Below are positions 2 through 7,349 of a DNA stretch of 24,921 nucleotides, in pieces. Each line of letters begins with the position of its first letter. Positions within the stretch are counted from its first letter, which is position 1. The stretch is taken from NCBI GenBank assembly GCA_964639055.1, contig CAZXBY010000001.1:1-24921 (forward strand). The letters run 5' to 3'. Both the position numbers and the translations under genes were made by a program. The notes under the pieces are model-generated. The model did not search any database and was not told the origin of the DNA. It was given only the letters and a program-made list of their open reading frames with translations. Origin of the DNA: Candidatus Woesearchaeota archaeon (GTDB lineage Archaea > Nanobdellota > Nanobdellia > Pacearchaeales > GW2011-AR1).

Positions 2-1042
2 ATTAGATTAAAATATCGTTTTTTAGACCTAAGACGAGAGCAAATGCAGAAAAATTTTGCATTAAGGTCAAAAGCTGCTAATGTTATAAGAAATTATTTA
101 GTAAGCCAAGAATTTACTGAAATAGATACACCACTACTCGTTAAATCTACTCCTGAAGGAGCACGAGACTATATAGTTCCAAGTAGAGTTAATCCAGGAG
201 ATTTTTATGCTCTTCCACAAAGTCCGCAATTATATAAACAAATATTAATGGTTTCAGGATTTGACAGATATTTTCAATTAGCTAAATGCTTAAGAGATGA
301 AGATTTACGTGCAGATAGACAACCAGAACATACTCAAATAGATATGGAGATGAGTTTCGTAGAAAGTAAAGACATTATGGAAACAGTAGAAAAGATGATA
401 AAACATTTATTCAAGGAGTGTTTAGATGTTGAACTCTCAGACTTTCAAATATTAACACATGAAGAATCTTTTGAAAAATATGGAACAGATAAACCAGATT
501 TAAGAAAAAATAAAGAAGATCCAAAAGAATTCGCATTTTGCTGGGTAGTAGATTTTCCGTTGTTTTCGCATGATGAAGAAACAAAAACATGGGCACCAGA
601 GCATCATATATTTTCTTCACCAAAAAAAGAACATATAGAGTTTTTAGAAACAAACCCTGAAAAAGTAAAAGGTGATCTGTTTGATTTAGTATTAAATGGT
701 ACTGAAATGGCTTCAGGAAGTATTCGTATAAGTAATCCACAATTACAAGAAAGAGTAATGAAAGTAATCGGAATGACACAAGAAGAAGCACGAACAAAAT
801 TCGGCTTTTTACTTAACGCTTATGACTATGGTGGACCAGTTCATGGTGGAATAGGAATAGGCTTTGACAGGTTAGTCGCCTTAATGTTAGGAACAAATGA
901 TATAAGAGAAGTAATCGCTTTTCCAAAAAACAAAGCCGCTCAATGCCCAATGGACGATTCGCCAAGTCCAATCACAAAAGAGCAATTAAAAGAAGCTAAT
1001 ATTAAGTTAGACCTTCCAAAAGAAAAAATTAAAACAAAATAA
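2..1042 (+). CDS. aspS: Aspartyl-tRNA synthetase, bacterial-type catalytic domain lacking the GAD insertion; 5' partial
   Basis: The frame is open from base 2 (IRLKYRFLDLRR, a canonical AspRS motif) upstream of ATG 44. Also present: motif 1 region (EIDTPLLVKSTPEGARDY), motif 2 (RDEDLRADRQPEHTQIDMEMSF) and motif 3 (HGGIGIGFDRL). Confidence 0.97.
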   Translation: MRLKYRFLDLRREQMQKNFALRSKAANVIRNYLVSQEFTEIDTPLLVKSTPEGARDYIVPSRVNPGDFYALPQSPQLYKQILMVSGFDRYFQLAKCLRDEDLRADRQPEHTQIDMEMSFVESKDIMETVEKMIKHLFKECLDVELSDFQILTHEESFEKYGTDKPDLRKNKEDPKEFAFCWVVDFPLFSHDEETKTWAPEHHIFSSPKKEHIEFLETNPEKVKGDLFDLVLNGTEMASGSIRISNPQLQERVMKVIGMTQEEARTKFGFLLNAYDYGGPVHGGIGIGFDRLVALMLGTNDIREVIAFPKNKAAQCPMDDSPSPITKEQLKEANIKLDLPKEKIKTK

Positions 1043-1094: not shown

Positions 1095-1271
1095 ATGGAA
1101 GATGAAGGTAAAGAAAGACGAAGACAATGCGATAATGATTGTGTACACTATAGAATTGATACAAGAAATGGCGATTATTGTGAGATGGGTAACCCAAGCG
1201 CATTTGTGAATTTACGAAAAGTATGTATTGATTATACGCCAAAAACAATAGCTGAAAAAGTTTTAGAATAA
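1095..1271 (+). CDS. 58-aa Cys-rich small protein (below the ORF-track cutoff)
   Basis: MEDEGKERRRQCDNDCVHYRIDTRNGDYCEMGNPSAFVNLRKVCIDYTPKTIAEKVLE*. It fills the aspS-gatC gap, has its own TATA box at the standard spacing and shows a CxxxCxH...C...C pattern. Confidence 0.7.
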   Translation: MEDEGKERRRQCDNDCVHYRIDTRNGDYCEMGNPSAFVNLRKVCIDYTPKTIAEKVLE

Positions 1272-1315
1272 TTTCTTCCCCAAAATCTTATAAAATATCA
1301 ATTCCTTTTCTTTTT

Positions 1316-1588
1316 ATGGCAAATGATTTTACATGGCACGAAGTAACAGAAACTGAGAAAAAAGAAATCCAAAAAGATGCTAAAAAACTCTTAAATGAAT
1401 TTTCAACGAAATTGTCATCAATAGAGGGTATTGAAGAGCACTTTGTCTCATCTGTCTCAAAAAATGGTCAAAGAGAAGAAGGTGAGCCATGGAAAACAGA
1501 ACCCGATTTTAGAGATTTAATGTTTTTGAATGCTCCGTTTGTAGAAGACGAATTCATAACAGCAGAAAAAGGGAGCTGGAGAAAATGA
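1316..1588 (+). CDS. gatC: Probable Asp-tRNA(Asn)/Glu-tRNA(Gln) amidotransferase subunit C (divergent)
   Basis: Size is 90 aa; helical N-terminus (KKLLNEFSTKLSSI), then REEGE...FRDLMFLNAP..EDEFITAEK resembling the GatC C-terminus. It lies between aspS and gatA, and a TATA box (1282-1294) is 21 nt upstream. Confidence 0.75.
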   Translation: MANDFTWHEVTETEKKEIQKDAKKLLNEFSTKLSSIEGIEEHFVSSVSKNGQREEGEPWKTEPDFRDLMFLNAPFVEDEFITAEKGSWRK

Positions 1589-2196
1589 TTGACGAACAAG
1601 AATTAAAACTAAAAGAATTAGATAGGCAATTGGCAAACATACTTGAAGAAAGATTAAAATTGGTTAGGCAAATGGACGACTATGGCTTAATGAATGAAGA
1701 AAAATTTAAAACTAAGCTTGAAGGAAAAGCTACAACCTTAATATTGAACAGTATTTTCAAAGAATTTGAAAAGAAAATTGCAAAACTAAATATCAAATCT
1801 ATTGTGGCAGCAGGACCGGTCATTATTGAAGATGGGAAACTTCTAGTTAATAAAGATTTGAAAGACGATTTTTATAAAATACCAGGTGGAACTATCGAGC
1901 CTGACACTGAGGACCTAGAAGAAGCGTGTTATCGAGAAGCAAGAGAAGAGAACAATGCAAAAATAGAAATCATTAAACCTTTACACCCCATGATAGTATG
2001 GAAAAATCCACAAACTAATGAAAAAATGGGAATTCTTTTAATACATTATCTTGCAAAATTAAAAAACCCTGACGAAATAAAAGCAATTAGTCCAGTTCAA
2101 GAGGTTAGATGGCTGGATATTGAAGAAATAAAGCAAAATAAACATAAAGTTGCTCCAAACATTAAATTCCTGATTGAAAAAGGGGACATTAAATAA
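1585..2196 (+). CDS. Degenerate chorismate-mutase (AroQ)-like helical domain fused to a NUDIX hydrolase
   Basis: The N-terminus KELDRQLANILEERLKL matches the AroQ first helix. The C-terminal Nudix box is PGGTIEPDTEDLEEACYREAREE. ATGA overlap with gatC. Confidence 0.75.
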   Translation: MIDEQELKLKELDRQLANILEERLKLVRQMDDYGLMNEEKFKTKLEGKATTLILNSIFKEFEKKIAKLNIKSIVAAGPVIIEDGKLLVNKDLKDDFYKIPGGTIEPDTEDLEEACYREAREENNAKIEIIKPLHPMIVWKNPQTNEKMGILLIHYLAKLKNPDEIKAISPVQEVRWLDIEEIKQNKHKVAPNIKFLIEKGDIK

Positions 2197-2198
2197 AA

Positions 2199-2453
2199 AT
2201 GGAACTGCTTAATTTAAGAGAACAAATCTCAGAAATAGACAGAAAAGTTCTAGAGCAATTGGAAGAACGAATGCGTATCTCTAAAGACATATCAAAAGTT
2301 AAAAAAGAAACTAATCTTCCTATAGAAGATAAAAAAAGAGAGGAAGAATTAATATTAAACAGACAATCGTATACTTCTATAAACAAAGAATTTGTTGAAG
2401 ATTTATTCAAATTAATAATTAAAGAATCAAAGAGAATCCAAAATGACAATTAA
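2199..2453 (+). CDS. Chorismate mutase, AroQ (type II) monofunctional
   Basis: R7, R24, K35, D44, R47, E48, S77 and Q81 correspond to E. coli CM catalytic residues R11, R28, K39, D48, R51, E52, S84 and Q88, with identical spacing across the first six. Confidence 0.88.
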   Translation: MELLNLREQISEIDRKVLEQLEERMRISKDISKVKKETNLPIEDKKREEELILNRQSYTSINKEFVEDLFKLIIKESKRIQNDN

Positions 2454-3774
2454 ATCAAAAGTAAAACAAATCAAATCAGGAAAACAGACAGCTTTGAATA
2501 ATCTCTTAGCCTTTTCAAAAAAAATAGCAACTCCAGGAACAAAAGACCTAAACATTTTTCTTAATTTAAATGAGAATGCGATAGAACAAGCAAAAAATAT
2601 TGATCAAAGAATAAAAAAAGGTGAAGAAGTTGGAAAATTAGCCGGAATTTGTTTTGCATTAAAATCAAATATTTCATACAAGGGAATTGAAACAAATTGT
2701 GCCTCAAAAGTCTTAGAAGGTTATGTCTCAGCATATAATGCAACTGTTGTAAACAAATTATTAACTGAAGACGCAATATTTTTAGGGATGACAAATATGG
2801 ACGAATTTGCTTGTGGCGCATCAGGAGAAACATCGGCCTTTGGACCAACAAAGAATCCAACCAACCCAGAATTAATCACCGGTGGTTCTTCATCCGGACC
2901 AGCAGCAGCGGTAGCAGCAGATCTCTGTGACTTTTCGCTAGGTTCAGATACAGGAGGCTCGATTAGAAATCCTGCATCACATTGTGGTGTAACCGGATTA
3001 AAACCATCATATGGCAAGGTTTCAAGATATGGTTTAATCGATATGTGTATGAGTTTTGATTGCATCGGGCCCTTAGCAAGAACAGTAGAAGATTGTAAAT
3101 TAGTACTAAGCGTAATAGAAGGTCAAGATCATTTTGATACAACAACAACGGAAGAAAAATATACTTCAAAATCCAAAGGCACAATAGGCCTAGTAAATGT
3201 TGAAAGCTTTGCAACTCCAGAAATTAAATCTAAAATAGAAACAAAAGTAAAAGAAGTTTCCAAAAAGAATAATTGGAAAATAAAAAAAATTACTCTTCCC
3301 TTAGATATTGCCCTAGAAACATATTATATTTTAGTATACACAGAATTTTTTTCAGGCACACGAAAGTTTGATGGTAGAAGATATGGAAAACTAATTGACC
3401 AAGCAGGCGGCCCCGAAGTACAACGAAGAATAATTGGAGGAAGCGAAATAACAAAAGCTGAGTTCGAAGGAAGGTATTATAGAGAAGCATTAAAAGCAAG
3501 GAATTTTATGAAAAAAGAATTTGAAAAAATATTTTCAAAATGTGATGCGATAATCTTGCCAACAGTTCCGAAATTAGCTCACAAAATAGGAGAAAAAATA
3601 ACACCAAAAGAAATGTATTCTTATGATGTATTCACAGTTCTAGCAAATATAGCGCAAATTCCAGCAATCTCAATTCCGATAGGAGAAATAGAGAGTAAAC
3701 AAGTGGGAATTCAATTAATGGCGCCAAGATTCAATGATGAGTTGCTCTTTAAATTAGGAAAAGATTTTGAATAA
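2443..3774 (+). CDS. gatA: Glutamyl/aspartyl-tRNA amidotransferase subunit A (amidase signature family)
   Basis: Amidase triad: ALKSNI (Lys), GGSSSG (cis-Ser) and GSDTGGSIRNPASHCG (Ser). Also TNMDEFA, GLKPSYGKVSRYGL and EVQRRIIGG. Confidence 0.95.
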   Translation: MTIKSKVKQIKSGKQTALNNLLAFSKKIATPGTKDLNIFLNLNENAIEQAKNIDQRIKKGEEVGKLAGICFALKSNISYKGIETNCASKVLEGYVSAYNATVVNKLLTEDAIFLGMTNMDEFACGASGETSAFGPTKNPTNPELITGGSSSGPAAAVAADLCDFSLGSDTGGSIRNPASHCGVTGLKPSYGKVSRYGLIDMCMSFDCIGPLARTVEDCKLVLSVIEGQDHFDTTTTEEKYTSKSKGTIGLVNVESFATPEIKSKIETKVKEVSKKNNWKIKKITLPLDIALETYYILVYTEFFSGTRKFDGRRYGKLIDQAGGPEVQRRIIGGSEITKAEFEGRYYREALKARNFMKKEFEKIFSKCDAIILPTVPKLAHKIGEKITPKEMYSYDVFTVLANIAQIPAISIPIGEIESKQVGIQLMAPRFNDELLFKLGKDFE

Positions 3775-3830: not shown

Positions 3831-4829
3831 ATGCCATCAGTAACAAAAGAACAAGCAAAAGAATTTTTAAACAAAATCTCGTCTAAAGATAATGTCTTAA
3901 TAATCCATCATGATGACCTAGATGGTTTTTCTTCAGGAGTATTGTTTCGAGAATTTGTAGAAAATAAAGGTGCAGAAGTAAAAAATGTCATTTTTACGAT
4001 AGGCTCTTCCCAAGAAAATGTGATAAAACAAACAAAAAAGTCCAATAAAATATTAATAGCAGATTTAGGGCCCGGAACTATTCCTAAAATATTAGAAGCA
4101 ATTAAACACAAACAAGTTTTTTATACAGATCATCATCAAATAGAAAAACCGATTCCAAAAGAAATTCTAGAATTAAGAACAATAAAAGAAGGATATGTCC
4201 CCTCATCACGAACAGTGTATGAACTTTGTGCTGGAAAAGAATGGCTGGCAATTGCAGGAACTTTATCCGATGCAGGTCATTTACATGATGCAAATAAAGA
4301 ATTTATTAAAAACTTTCTTGAAAAAAATAAAATAACACAAAAAAAATACCTAGAACAAGTGGTATTTACAATAAACAAAATGTTAGTTTACTTTAATCAA
4401 AGACCGAAAAAGGCTCTATATAAATTGTTAAAACTAAAACAATACACAGACGCAAAAGCTCTTAAAAAATTTGCAAGACCAATAGAAAAAGAAATTCAAA
4501 AATATATAAAGGGATATAAGGATAATCATGAGCAAATAGGAAAAATAAAATTTTATTATTTCGACCCAAAATATCCGATAAAGTCTACAGTTACTTCCCA
4601 GCTCGGTTTTATGAACAAGAACGACCAATTCATTTTCGCAACCCCAGACAAAGACATGATTCGTCTAAGCGCACGAAGCCAAAACAAAAATGCCAATATG
4701 ATAACTGCTCTAAAAACAGGCATTAAGGGGTTAGAAAACGCAACATGCGGTGGCCACATACCAGCTGCAGGTGGACAAATAGATAAAAAAGACTTGAAAC
4801 AATTTAGAGAAAATCTAAAAAATTACTAG
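3831..4829 (+). CDS. DHH/DHHA1 family phosphoesterase (RecJ/NrnA-like)
   Basis: Motifs HHDDLDG, IADLG, TDHHQ, GTLSD and the DHHA1 GGHIPAAG. A TATA-like CCCTTAAAA lies 22 nt upstream. Confidence 0.92.
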   Translation: MPSVTKEQAKEFLNKISSKDNVLIIHHDDLDGFSSGVLFREFVENKGAEVKNVIFTIGSSQENVIKQTKKSNKILIADLGPGTIPKILEAIKHKQVFYTDHHQIEKPIPKEILELRTIKEGYVPSSRTVYELCAGKEWLAIAGTLSDAGHLHDANKEFIKNFLEKNKITQKKYLEQVVFTINKMLVYFNQRPKKALYKLLKLKQYTDAKALKKFARPIEKEIQKYIKGYKDNHEQIGKIKFYYFDPKYPIKSTVTSQLGFMNKNDQFIFATPDKDMIRLSARSQNKNANMITALKTGIKGLENATCGGHIPAAGGQIDKKDLKQFRENLKNY

Positions 4830-6269: not shown

Positions 6270-7349
6270 ATGCCATTAGATTTTACAAAAGAAGCAATCG
6301 AAACCGCTGAAGCAAATAGTATTAACTTTAACGAACTTCGTGCTGGTAAAGCTAACATAAAAGTATTCGGATGTGGTGGCTGTGGTTGTAACATGGCAAC
6401 ATGGTTATTCAACAAAGGTATCAACGGTGCAATAGTTTACGGACTAAATACAGACGCATTACACCTTTCAATCACCAAAACCGATGAAAAAATTTTAATA
6501 GGTAAAGAACTCACTCGTGGACTAGGTTGCGGAGGCTATCCTAAACGAGGTCGAGAAGCTGCAAAAGAATCTCTTACTGACCTGAAAAAAGCTGTTTCCA
6601 ATTCAGATATGGTTTTTGTTCTGGCTGGTATGGGAGGAGGAACTGGAACAGGTGCAATCCCTGTCGTAGCTCAACTCGCCAAAGATGCAGGAGCAGTCGT
6701 AATCGCCGTAGTCACAATGCCTTTCGAAGCTGAAAAAGCACGAATAGATAAAGCAGAGTTCGGCCTACAAGAGTTACGAGAATCGGTTGACACTGTGATT
6801 GTACTAGACAATAATCGTTTAGTAGACATAGCAGGTCAACTACCTATGGAACAAGCTTTCGCTGTCGCGAATGAATTAGTCTCAACAATGATTAAAGGAA
6901 TTGTAGAAACAATCACTTTACCATCATTAATTAATCTAGATTATGCCGATGTATCCTCAATAATGAAAAACGGAGATGTCGCTGTAATTGGAATAGGTGA
7001 AGACAATTCAAATGCTAAAGTTGATGCAGCCGTTCAACAAGCTCTAACACATCCATTATTAGATGTAGACTATAGAGGAGCCACAGGTGCATTAATTCAT
7101 GTAACCGCTGGACCCGATTTAAAATTAGAAGAGTTTGATAACATTGGTCGACTCGTAACCGAGAATTTATCACCAGAAGCGCAGGTAATAATCGGAGCTC
7201 GAGTAAATAAAGAATTTCAAGGACGAGTAAGAGTCATAACAATTATGACAGGAGTTAAATCTCCATATATTCTTGGAAAAAATCAACCAACGTTTAATGA
7301 AGAGCGACATGTTAGTATAAACGACCTAGGCCTAGACGATTTAGCCTAA
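6270..7349 (+). CDS. ftsZ: Cell division GTPase FtsZ (archaeal)
   Basis: GCGGCG T1 loop, NTD, TRGLGCGG, tubulin signature GMGGGTGTG and T7 loop NLDYADV. Confidence 0.97.
   Translation: MPLDFTKEAIETAEANSINFNELRAGKANIKVFGCGGCGCNMATWLFNKGINGAIVYGLNTDALHLSITKTDEKILIGKELTRGLGCGGYPKRGREAAKESLTDLKKAVSNSDMVFVLAGMGGGTGTGAIPVVAQLAKDAGAVVIAVVTMPFEAEKARIDKAEFGLQELRESVDTVIVLDNNRLVDIAGQLPMEQAFAVANELVSTMIKGIVETITLPSLINLDYADVSSIMKNGDVAVIGIGEDNSNAKVDAAVQQALTHPLLDVDYRGATGALIHVTAGPDLKLEEFDNIGRLVTENLSPEAQVIIGARVNKEFQGRVRVITIMTGVKSPYILGKNQPTFNEERHVSINDLGLDDLA

Follow-up and report, generated by a model that had tools for sequence, protein, structure and literature searches.

We analysed a window of 24,921 nucleotides (nt), meaning the whole stretch of DNA under study, at the start of contig CAZXBY010000001.1 from a Candidatus Woesearchaeota genome assembly (GCA_964639055.1, here G000). 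The window opens with the aspS-gatC-gatA cluster for Asn-tRNA transamidation of a tiny, symbiotic DPANN archaeon of Pacearchaeota type, in which gatC and gatA are separated by two accessory genes that are translationally chained to them (Table 1). The first encodes a Nudix hydrolase whose N-terminus is, as judged from its sequence, a decayed descendant of an AroQ chorismate mutase (CM), and the second a separate, apparently intact CM of 84 amino acids (aa). All listed genes of the window are on the + strand. An earlier note on this DNA had described the four genes as tightly coupled, and direct reading bears this out: the gatC stop codon and the start of the fusion gene overlap by 4 nt (ATGA), a 2-nt gap separates the fusion gene (complete open reading frame (ORF) 1585-2196, 203 aa, with Pfam NUDIX spanning residues 75-188) from the CM gene, which is in a different reading frame, and the CM gene overlaps gatA by 11 nt. 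The same note placed gatB outside this operon, and we indeed located the gatB candidate, the single GatB_N match in the assembly, on contig C2. A T-rich stretch followed by a second A/T (TATA-like) box can be read between gatA and the DHH gene. Given these elements and the box TTATAAAATA in front of gatC, the four genes from gatC to gatA look like one co-transcribed, leaderless unit, with TTATAAAATA as its likely promoter, and the DHH/DHHA1 gene seems to have a TATA-like promoter box of its own.

Table 1. Features at the start of the window
Feature	Coordinates	Strand	Basis
aspS, 3' part, bacterial-type aspartyl-tRNA synthetase (AspRS)	2..1042	+	Pfam tRNA-synt_2 384 bits; NCBIfam aspS_bact 505 bits; 5'-truncated by contig end
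58-aa Cys/His-rich ORF between aspS and gatC	1095-1271	+	sub-threshold Pfam match, E 0.053
TATA-like box TTATAAAATA	1288..1297	+	~24 nt before gatC ATG, read from sequence
gatC, archaeal GatC-related, 90 aa	1316..1588	+	TIGR01827 54.1 bits vs cut-off 52.1
AroQ-derived, catalytically dead two-helix domain, fusion residues 1-72	1585..1800	+	hhalign, residue mapping, AlphaFold, pN/pS
Nudix hydrolase domain, fusion residues 73-203	1801..2196	+	Pfam NUDIX (PF00293) 43.4 bits vs 21.1
Predicted monofunctional AroQ chorismate mutase, 84 aa	2199..2453	+	Pfam CM_2 (PF01817) 70.4 bits vs cut-off 27
gatA, amidase-signature glutaminase subunit	2443..3774	+	Pfam Amidase 397.5 bits; TIGR00132 459.7 bits
DHH/DHHA1 phosphoesterase, RecJ-like	3831..4829	+	Pfam DHH 30.1, DHHA1 24.8 bits
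ftsZ	6270-7349	+	ORF listing

Residues 1-72 of the fusion gave no Pfam match, CM_2 (PF01817) included, at E<=1. The earlier note had considered that this domain might be a generic coiled coil with no match to an AroQ profile, but such a match was found: a profile of 30 N-terminal domains, built without any recognisable mutase, aligned over 70 columns with a set of six intact mutases from within this archaeal group (hhalign, 97.3%, E 2.5e-11). A 15-residue gap in the alignment corresponds to the helix 1-2 loop and helix 2, which are missing from the decayed domain. Against the PDB, the same profile retrieved chorismate mutase 6al9 (E 0.0018) and, more weakly, 1ybz, 5gmu, 1ecm and 5j6f, all ranking below spurious repeat-protein matches. 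The fusion N-terminus is 32% identical to the adjoining mutase over 69 residues (BLASTP). AlphaFold predicted two helices (residues 2-32 and 41-67; predicted local distance difference test (pLDDT) values of 51-75) followed by a confident Nudix domain, so that the three-helix AroQ architecture is not retained and helix 2 appears to be deleted. Catalytic residues were mapped onto the Escherichia coli chorismate mutase (EcCM), the numbering of which is self-consistent; the EcCM structure 1ecm is also matched directly by the 84-aa protein. Only one of the eight catalytic residues, the R28 equivalent (R23), is kept in the fusion, in agreement with the earlier description of the fused copy as catalytically dead. 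The 30 family members have in common an FKEFE motif and a conserved hydrophobic patterning of the helices, and the position equivalent to R11 is variable (K, R, E, Q, S, D, G, V or N). In comparisons with six relatives, the proportion of nonsynonymous differences (pN) in the dead domain was 0.19-0.31, far below that of synonymous differences (pS), which was saturated at 0.74 or more; the value for the Nudix domain was 0.09-0.16. This disparity indicates that the dead domain is translated and kept by purifying selection.

Forms intermediate between an enzyme and this remnant are also found. In the homologue P0107, which is 56% identical overall to the window's fusion, the same position scores 51.5 bits on CM_2 and keeps six of the eight catalytic residues. 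Free AroQ genes upstream of the Nudix gene in loci L086 and L122 have in common with the fused forms the helix-3 motif 'LFDE..KK' / 'FKEFE' and are without S84 and Q88; they look like the progenitor type of the fused domain. In a weakly resolved AroQ tree of 34 sequences, the dead domains form one clade (Shimodaira-Hasegawa-like approximate likelihood ratio test (SH-aLRT) support 97) that joins the fused domain of P0107 (86), and the window's intact mutase is placed among canonical mutases (84). Because the tree puts them in separate clades, the intact mutase and the dead domain do not appear to be recent duplicates. On this evidence, the fusion N-terminus descends from an AroQ chorismate mutase and is no longer a working member of that family. 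The locus would thus belong to a natural series from enzyme to pseudoenzyme module: a free AroQ gene, a fused AroQ domain with six of eight residues, and a two-helix remnant under selection. Small ORFs beside unfused Nudix genes, such as a 70-aa ORF in L006, showed no cryptic AroQ likeness when searched with hidden Markov models of the intact and dead domains. The Nudix-domain tree (82 sequences) is too poorly resolved to tell whether the fusion arose once. A close precedent is the AroA(G) CM-DAHP (3-deoxy-D-arabinoheptulosonate 7-phosphate) synthase of Bacillus, Geobacillus and Listeria, in which an N-terminal AroQ domain is likewise fused to a catalytic domain unrelated to it and serves as a regulatory module, bulk catalysis being no longer its chief use; the matches of the dead-domain profile include both AroA(G) structures, 5gmu and 5j6f. 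The AroQ domains of AroA(G) have kept their active-site residues and the ability to bind chorismate or prephenate, whereas the window's fused domain has lost seven of eight residues together with helix 2 and is joined to a Nudix hydrolase, outside the shikimate pathway. No description of a CM-Nudix fusion, or of this arrangement, was found in the literature (CM-GatCAB, CM in DPANN, Nudix in Pacearchaeota).

The catalytic half of the fusion belongs to the ApnA/NTP/RppH-like structural class of Nudix pyrophosphohydrolases, as modelled by AlphaFold with pLDDT values of 84-97 by 10-residue block. The Aquifex aeolicus Ap4A hydrolase 3i7u is both its top fold match (target template modelling score 0.80, E 1.5e-9) and its top sequence match (E 1.7e-5), and Deinococcus DR1025, the Thermus Ap6A hydrolase and Bdellovibrio RppH are among its other nearest neighbours in sequence or fold. 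The REx2EE core is intact (R117 E118, E121 E122), E109 is also present, and all of these residues are conserved across the family. Since the core is conserved, the domain is probably an active pyrophosphohydrolase that acts on (di)nucleoside polyphosphates, NTPs or RNA 5' ends. Relative to the consensus GX5EX7REUXEEXGU, the first G of the Nudix box is displaced by one inserted residue and the final G is replaced by N124. These deviations distinguish the domain from its closest characterised relatives (3i7u; Thermus Ndx1 Ap6A, 1vc8; Bdellovibrio RppH, 3ees), with which it has the REx2EE core in common at 24-29% identity and which are without an N-terminal helical domain. Genes for other nucleotide phosphoesterases, namely HIT, DHH, metallophosphoesterase and 5'-nucleotidases, are often neighbours of the Nudix gene, and a tie to Ap4A made by AspRS is only a thought. 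The identity of Nudix domains does not follow taxonomy: genomes of the same genus (G138, G147) are 63-65% identical to the window's domain, as against 78-80% for those of other genera (G200, G191, G110), which hints that the Nudix gene or the cassette has been exchanged between lineages. In three loci (L023, 6001-6270; L019; L063), the full Nudix gene is directly preceded by a Nudix-like fragment of 89-91 aa, which may represent a partial tandem duplication.

The second accessory gene encodes, by its sequence, a canonical and fully equipped AroQ chorismate mutase of a different AroQ lineage from the fused domain. All eight EcCM catalytic residues are identical in the 84-aa protein (R7, R24, K35, D44, R47, E48, S77 and Q81, corresponding to R11', R28, K39, D48, R51, E52, S84 and Q88 of EcCM), which is what the earlier note had reported, and the enzyme looks catalytically intact. 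Among solved structures, its best match is 1ybz, the mutase of Pyrococcus furiosus (E 3.6e-10). The ORF stays below the cut-off on every NCBIfam equivalog model (best TIGR01791, 52.7 vs 66.95), and a profile scan found it to be the only CM_2 protein of the assembly; a word-index homologue search with the 84-aa sequence returned no match besides itself, and its relatives were found by way of gene neighbourhoods and scans of genomes. In length class, CM_2 match and active-site residues, the protein resembles the monofunctional AroQ mutases EcCM (1ecm) and 1ybz; unlike them, it belongs to an organism without detected chorismate synthase or enzymes leading from prephenate to Phe or Tyr, and its gene is inside a gatC-gatA operon.

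The slot occupied by these two genes recurs in related archaea. Among 705 database relatives of the fusion protein, the N-terminal domain is present in about 45 clusters, and the remainder are mostly 135-aa Nudix-only proteins of ~78% identity. In all, 224 species-level genomes encode a relative, every one labelled Pacearchaeota, Woesearchaeota or Nanoarchaeota, and neighbourhoods were counted in the best 80 species loci out of these 224. Of the 80 loci, 39 have a gatC homologue immediately before the Nudix gene, 36 have gatA downstream of it (23 directly, 13 after one or two extra genes) and 22 have a DHH gene downstream; the order gatC-Nudix-(0-2 genes)-gatA was found in 36 of the 80 Pacearchaeota-type loci. 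Products of the extra genes include an S51 peptidase, seen in the closest relatives, as well as acetyltransferases of the GNAT type, a 5'-nucleotidase (UMPH-1), a methyltransferase, a nucleotidyltransferase/HEPN-like pair and, besides these known types, a recurrent uncharacterised family. A mutase gene without a Nudix gene lies between gatC and gatA in L096, L098, L108 and L109, and mutase and Nudix genes are side by side in L051 and L086. To judge from gene order, the gatC-gatA gap is a variable accessory-gene site and a recurrent landing place in this order, usually for the Nudix gene and sometimes for the mutase, S51 peptidase, GNAT, 5'-nucleotidase or the uncharacterised family. In 201 genomes sampled across the order, Nudix was present in 41 (20%), CM_2 in 23 (11%) and both in 7; the idea that the two genes travel as a pair was dropped, as their presence is independent (p=0.27). 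A metagenome scan with a three-sequence CM alignment gave 22 loci, mostly bacterial fusions of the P- or T-protein type, and no new gatC-CM-gatA arrangement.

Two kinds of slot occupant were noted in passing. The uncharacterised family (95-157 aa, no Pfam match, motifs TGT.N.GF.HRY and FFG.K..F.IRT) recurs just before gatA or DHH (L051, 4672-5133; L046, 6402-6875; L121, 2324-2797; L110, 3757-4185 on the - strand; L032, 3742-4122; and seven more loci) and was not found in the window's genome. In L061 (4029-5017), a nucleotidyltransferase with a helix-turn-helix and a HEPN-like partner, by eye of toxin-antitoxin type, lie between the Nudix gene and gatA, so the slot would also take mobile-type cargo.

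The pairing of a decayed fusion with an intact mutase, which the earlier note had conceded might be unique to this contig, occurs elsewhere. In L117, a decayed fusion (74% identical) is followed directly by an intact mutase (42% identical), the same order is found in L121 (fusion 58% identical), and in L122 the mutase lies just upstream of the fusion. Counting loci as they stand, with no correction for shared ancestry, an intact CM adjoins 4 of 11 decayed-fusion loci and 2 of 77 unfused Nudix loci (p=0.002). The decayed fusions of L002/L009, L010, L011, L116, L118, L119 and L120 have no adjacent mutase; in the closest relative, G001, the mutase is 86 kb away, and two incomplete metagenome-assembled genomes with a decayed fusion, G002 and G003, have no CM_2 anywhere in their assemblies.

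We then considered what an intact mutase could be doing in this organism. The earlier note had stated that DPANN archaea generally lack aromatic amino acid biosynthesis, and this holds here only in part. No chorismate synthase, 3-dehydroquinate (DHQ) synthase, 5-enolpyruvylshikimate-3-phosphate (EPSP) synthase, prephenate dehydratase (PDT) or prephenate dehydrogenase (PDH) was found in the assembly (794 kb in 122 contigs, 79% complete), PDH giving nothing above noise, and tblastn with queries from the same order likewise had no match for DHQ synthase, chorismate synthase, PDH or PDT. EPSP synthase was also not found in seven congeners, one of them 100% complete, nor were PDT and PDH in five of six other genomes tested, the remaining one (G008) having PDH. 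What does not fit the statement is a DAHP synthase of the AroFGH type (I-alpha, bacterial-like; TIGR00034, 381 bits), encoded on contig C3 (12307-13347, - strand) between an MFS transporter gene and mutS. With the genes found, the organism would be unable to make chorismate or to turn prephenate into Phe or Tyr. Clusters of methionyl-tRNA synthetase (MetRS), CM, PDH and PDT genes (L092, L104) or a CM-PDH fusion (L090) persist in other families of the order, and the mutase is therefore plausibly the survivor of a lost pathway. In G200, of the window's own family, MetRS-CM and an ORF with a tRNA-binding domain are all that remains (L093), a second aminoacyl-tRNA-synthetase neighbourhood for CM. 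A non-covalent enzyme partner is what the small AroQ protein works through in the AroQ-delta CM/DAHP synthase hetero-complex of Mycobacterium and Corynebacterium (5mpv). The window's genome has a DAHP synthase too, and 5mpv is a sequence match of the 84-aa protein; the enzyme here, however, is of type I-alpha and unlinked, and to our knowledge no AroQ-delta-like CM complex is known for DAHP synthases of that type.

A candidate consumer of prephenate other than PDT and PDH was found by signature search. Contig C53 (4277-5461, - strand) encodes a 394-aa Peptidase_U32 protein (PF01136, 241.8 bits) with a Cys-rich motif, ECFCHGAMCVAVSGRCFTS, which we take to be a near-match to the U32 family signature, and a C-terminal barrel. 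Its top NCBIfam model is TrhP, the prephenate-dependent tRNA U34 hydroxylase, at 208 against a cut-off of 534, followed by UbiU, also below cut-off, so TrhP orthology is not reached at the equivalog level. The characterised U32 enzymes TrhP, RlhA and UbiU/UbiV all need prephenate, and in E. coli the chorismate mutase domain by itself restores U32 function (PMC6599085, PMC5727448, PMC10990095). The C53 protein resembles these enzymes in its Peptidase_U32 profile and Cys-rich motif, and TrhP and RlhA also in the C-terminal barrel; it differs from them in being archaeal and far below the TrhP cut-off. We know of no archaeal RNA hydroxylase of the U32 kind shown so far. In the metagenome locus L131 (2770-4460), the gene for a U32 protein (414 aa, 43% identical to the C53 protein) overlaps the start of a CM gene (86 aa, 40% identical to the 84-aa mutase), and a ferredoxin-like ORF of 75 aa comes next, in what looks like a compact prephenate-hydroxylase cassette. 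The suggestion of the earlier note that the AroQ fold might serve a role unrelated to chorismate is not needed once the genome is seen to hold a TrhP-like protein from a family with characterised members that require prephenate.

The explanation that we favour joins these observations as follows. An AroQ gene of the type found in L086 and L122, lying in front of the Nudix gene, would have fused to it; P0107 would represent the intermediate; and the fused domain would then have decayed into a helical hairpin that serves the Nudix enzyme as a dimerisation or structural module, using the old packing of AroQ helix 1 and helix 3. The intact mutase would be an ordinary homodimer that turns host-derived chorismate into prephenate, not for the synthesis of Phe and Tyr, for which the enzymes are missing, but to supply the co-substrate for the Fe-S hydroxylase of the U32 family (TrhP/RlhA-like) that the genome encodes, the presumed target of which is tRNA or rRNA. 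Its place in a translation-related operon would reflect ancestral synteny and co-expression with the translation apparatus rather than physical partnership with GatCA; that CM stays beside DHH in L095, L101 and L110, where gatCA is missing, argues against dependence on GatCA. Taken as a whole, this account seems to us about evenly poised between right and wrong. Within it, an old accessory-gene site and the fusion and decay of an AroQ domain are indicated by gene order and alignment; by analogy with AroQ and from the conserved helix pattern, the dead domain is probably a dimerisation scaffold; and the intact mutase probably supplies prephenate to the U32 hydroxylase.

Genome-reduced symbionts may, then, keep an orphan CM for the U32 co-substrate prephenate and not for an amino-acid precursor, and a 'chorismate mutase' annotation in such genomes is not to be taken as evidence of aromatic amino acid biosynthesis. 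If the account is true, prephenate-dependent RNA hydroxylation extends to DPANN archaea, and chorismate or prephenate is a metabolite drawn from the host, which would be a testable dependency.

Several observations pull the other way. Every absence from an assembly of this completeness is provisional. No source of chorismate was found in it, so the scheme needs imported chorismate, and the lone DAHP synthase, with no detected DHQ synthase for its product, is unexplained. L131 comes from a more distant organism, and no U32 gene adjoins CM in the ~50 CM loci of the order that were read. U32 homologues 63-74% identical to the C53 protein are abundant among proteins labelled Pacearchaeota or Nanoarchaeota and are far commoner than CM_2, so most relatives seem to run U32 without a mutase of their own. 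Finally, the enrichment of intact CM beside decayed fusions can be explained by shared history and also fits a functional pairing.

Among the alternatives, the one that survives best is that the decay of a Phe/Tyr pathway has left the intact mutase behind, or that the enzyme salvages host chorismate towards Phe/Tyr, with no link to RNA hydroxylation and an operon place that is inherited synteny. The MetRS-CM-PDH-PDT clusters and the CM-PDH fusion elsewhere in the order speak for it, as do a chorismate synthase in G013, the patchiness of CM_2, a stop codon in the CM_2 copy of G049 and the lone DAHP synthase, which fits piecemeal loss of a pathway. A functionless gene, however, would not be expected to hold all eight catalytic residues, as the mutase does here and in most slot copies across genera only ~40% identical; moreover, PDT and PDH are missing from this genome and from most others tested, and a prephenate consumer, the U32 protein, is present. 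We consider this alternative unlikely.

Less probable still is that the dead AroQ domain heterodimerises with the 84-aa mutase, tethering CM to, or regulating it on, the Nudix enzyme in a mixed dimer that could have no more than one active site. In AroQ enzymes, which form intertwined dimers, both chains contribute to the active sites, and the helix-1 hydrophobic pattern is common to the dead domain and the 84-aa mutase. The two genes are 2 nt apart here, the adjacency is enriched and recurs at fusion identities down to 58% (L117, L121, L122), and in the genus it is the same two genomes that have the fusion and CM. Enrichment is nevertheless to be expected in any case, given that AroQ genes already adjoined the Nudix gene where the fusion arose, and 7 of 11 decayed-fusion loci have no adjacent CM, with no CM_2 at all in G002 and G003 (both incomplete). 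Helix 2 is deleted in the dead domain, and a mixed dimer would cripple the enzyme, since the R11 equivalent, which the partner chain must provide, is variable in the dead family. The heterodimer thus appears not to be obligatory and would be facultative at most. An elaboration of the same idea makes the dead domain a docking module that captures the active CM subunit, with prephenate production coupled physically or allosterically to the Nudix hydrolase and the pair co-expressed with GatCA as an undescribed translation-linked DPANN module; a pseudoenzyme domain would then control its active paralogue, a prospect that we rate as distinctly improbable.

That the mutase, the Nudix protein or both are working accessory subunits of an archaeal GatCA(B) transamidosome is very improbable. 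Both genes are inserted between, not beside, gatC and gatA in many genera, and their junctions overlap tightly; against this, both are accessory and occur independently of each other, CM is retained in three loci without gatC and gatA (L095, L101, L110), the Nudix gene is likewise retained in L073, L083 and L118, and the slot also holds the unrelated S51 peptidase, GNAT, UMPH-1 and MNT/HEPN-like pair. Finally, the view that fusion residues 1-72 have nothing to do with AroQ and form a generic coiled coil, or are a remnant that is not translated, could appeal to the failure of Pfam CM_2, the low model confidence and a helical low-complexity composition that draws spurious matches such as designed PPR proteins, but it is scarcely credible in the face of an hhalign match across the full domain, several chorismate mutases among the profile's PDB matches, the intermediate P0107, a fusion ATG that overlaps the gatC stop with no alternative start near the Nudix domain, and a reading frame kept open in six relatives, in which pN is far lower than pS.

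Some further features of the locus complete its description. The missing 5' part of aspS is on contig C61, where tblastn placed residues 10-127 of a relative's AspRS at the contig end. The place of the 58-aa Cys/His-rich ORF is taken in the closest relatives by a HIT gene of divergent orientation. The TIGR00132 score of gatA is just below the cut-off of 481.1, yet far above those of all other amidase models, and the DHH/DHHA1 gene reaches 72 bits on NCBIfam RecJ_archaeal, far under its cut-off. Rfam and tRNA scans of the window gave no matches. On contig C2 (~569-2391), a relative's GatB was matched in three pieces; an insertion, a frameshift or sequence divergence could each account for the ~400-nt gap between 1345 and 1757. 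The relative L002 has a GatD gene close to the GatB-like gene.

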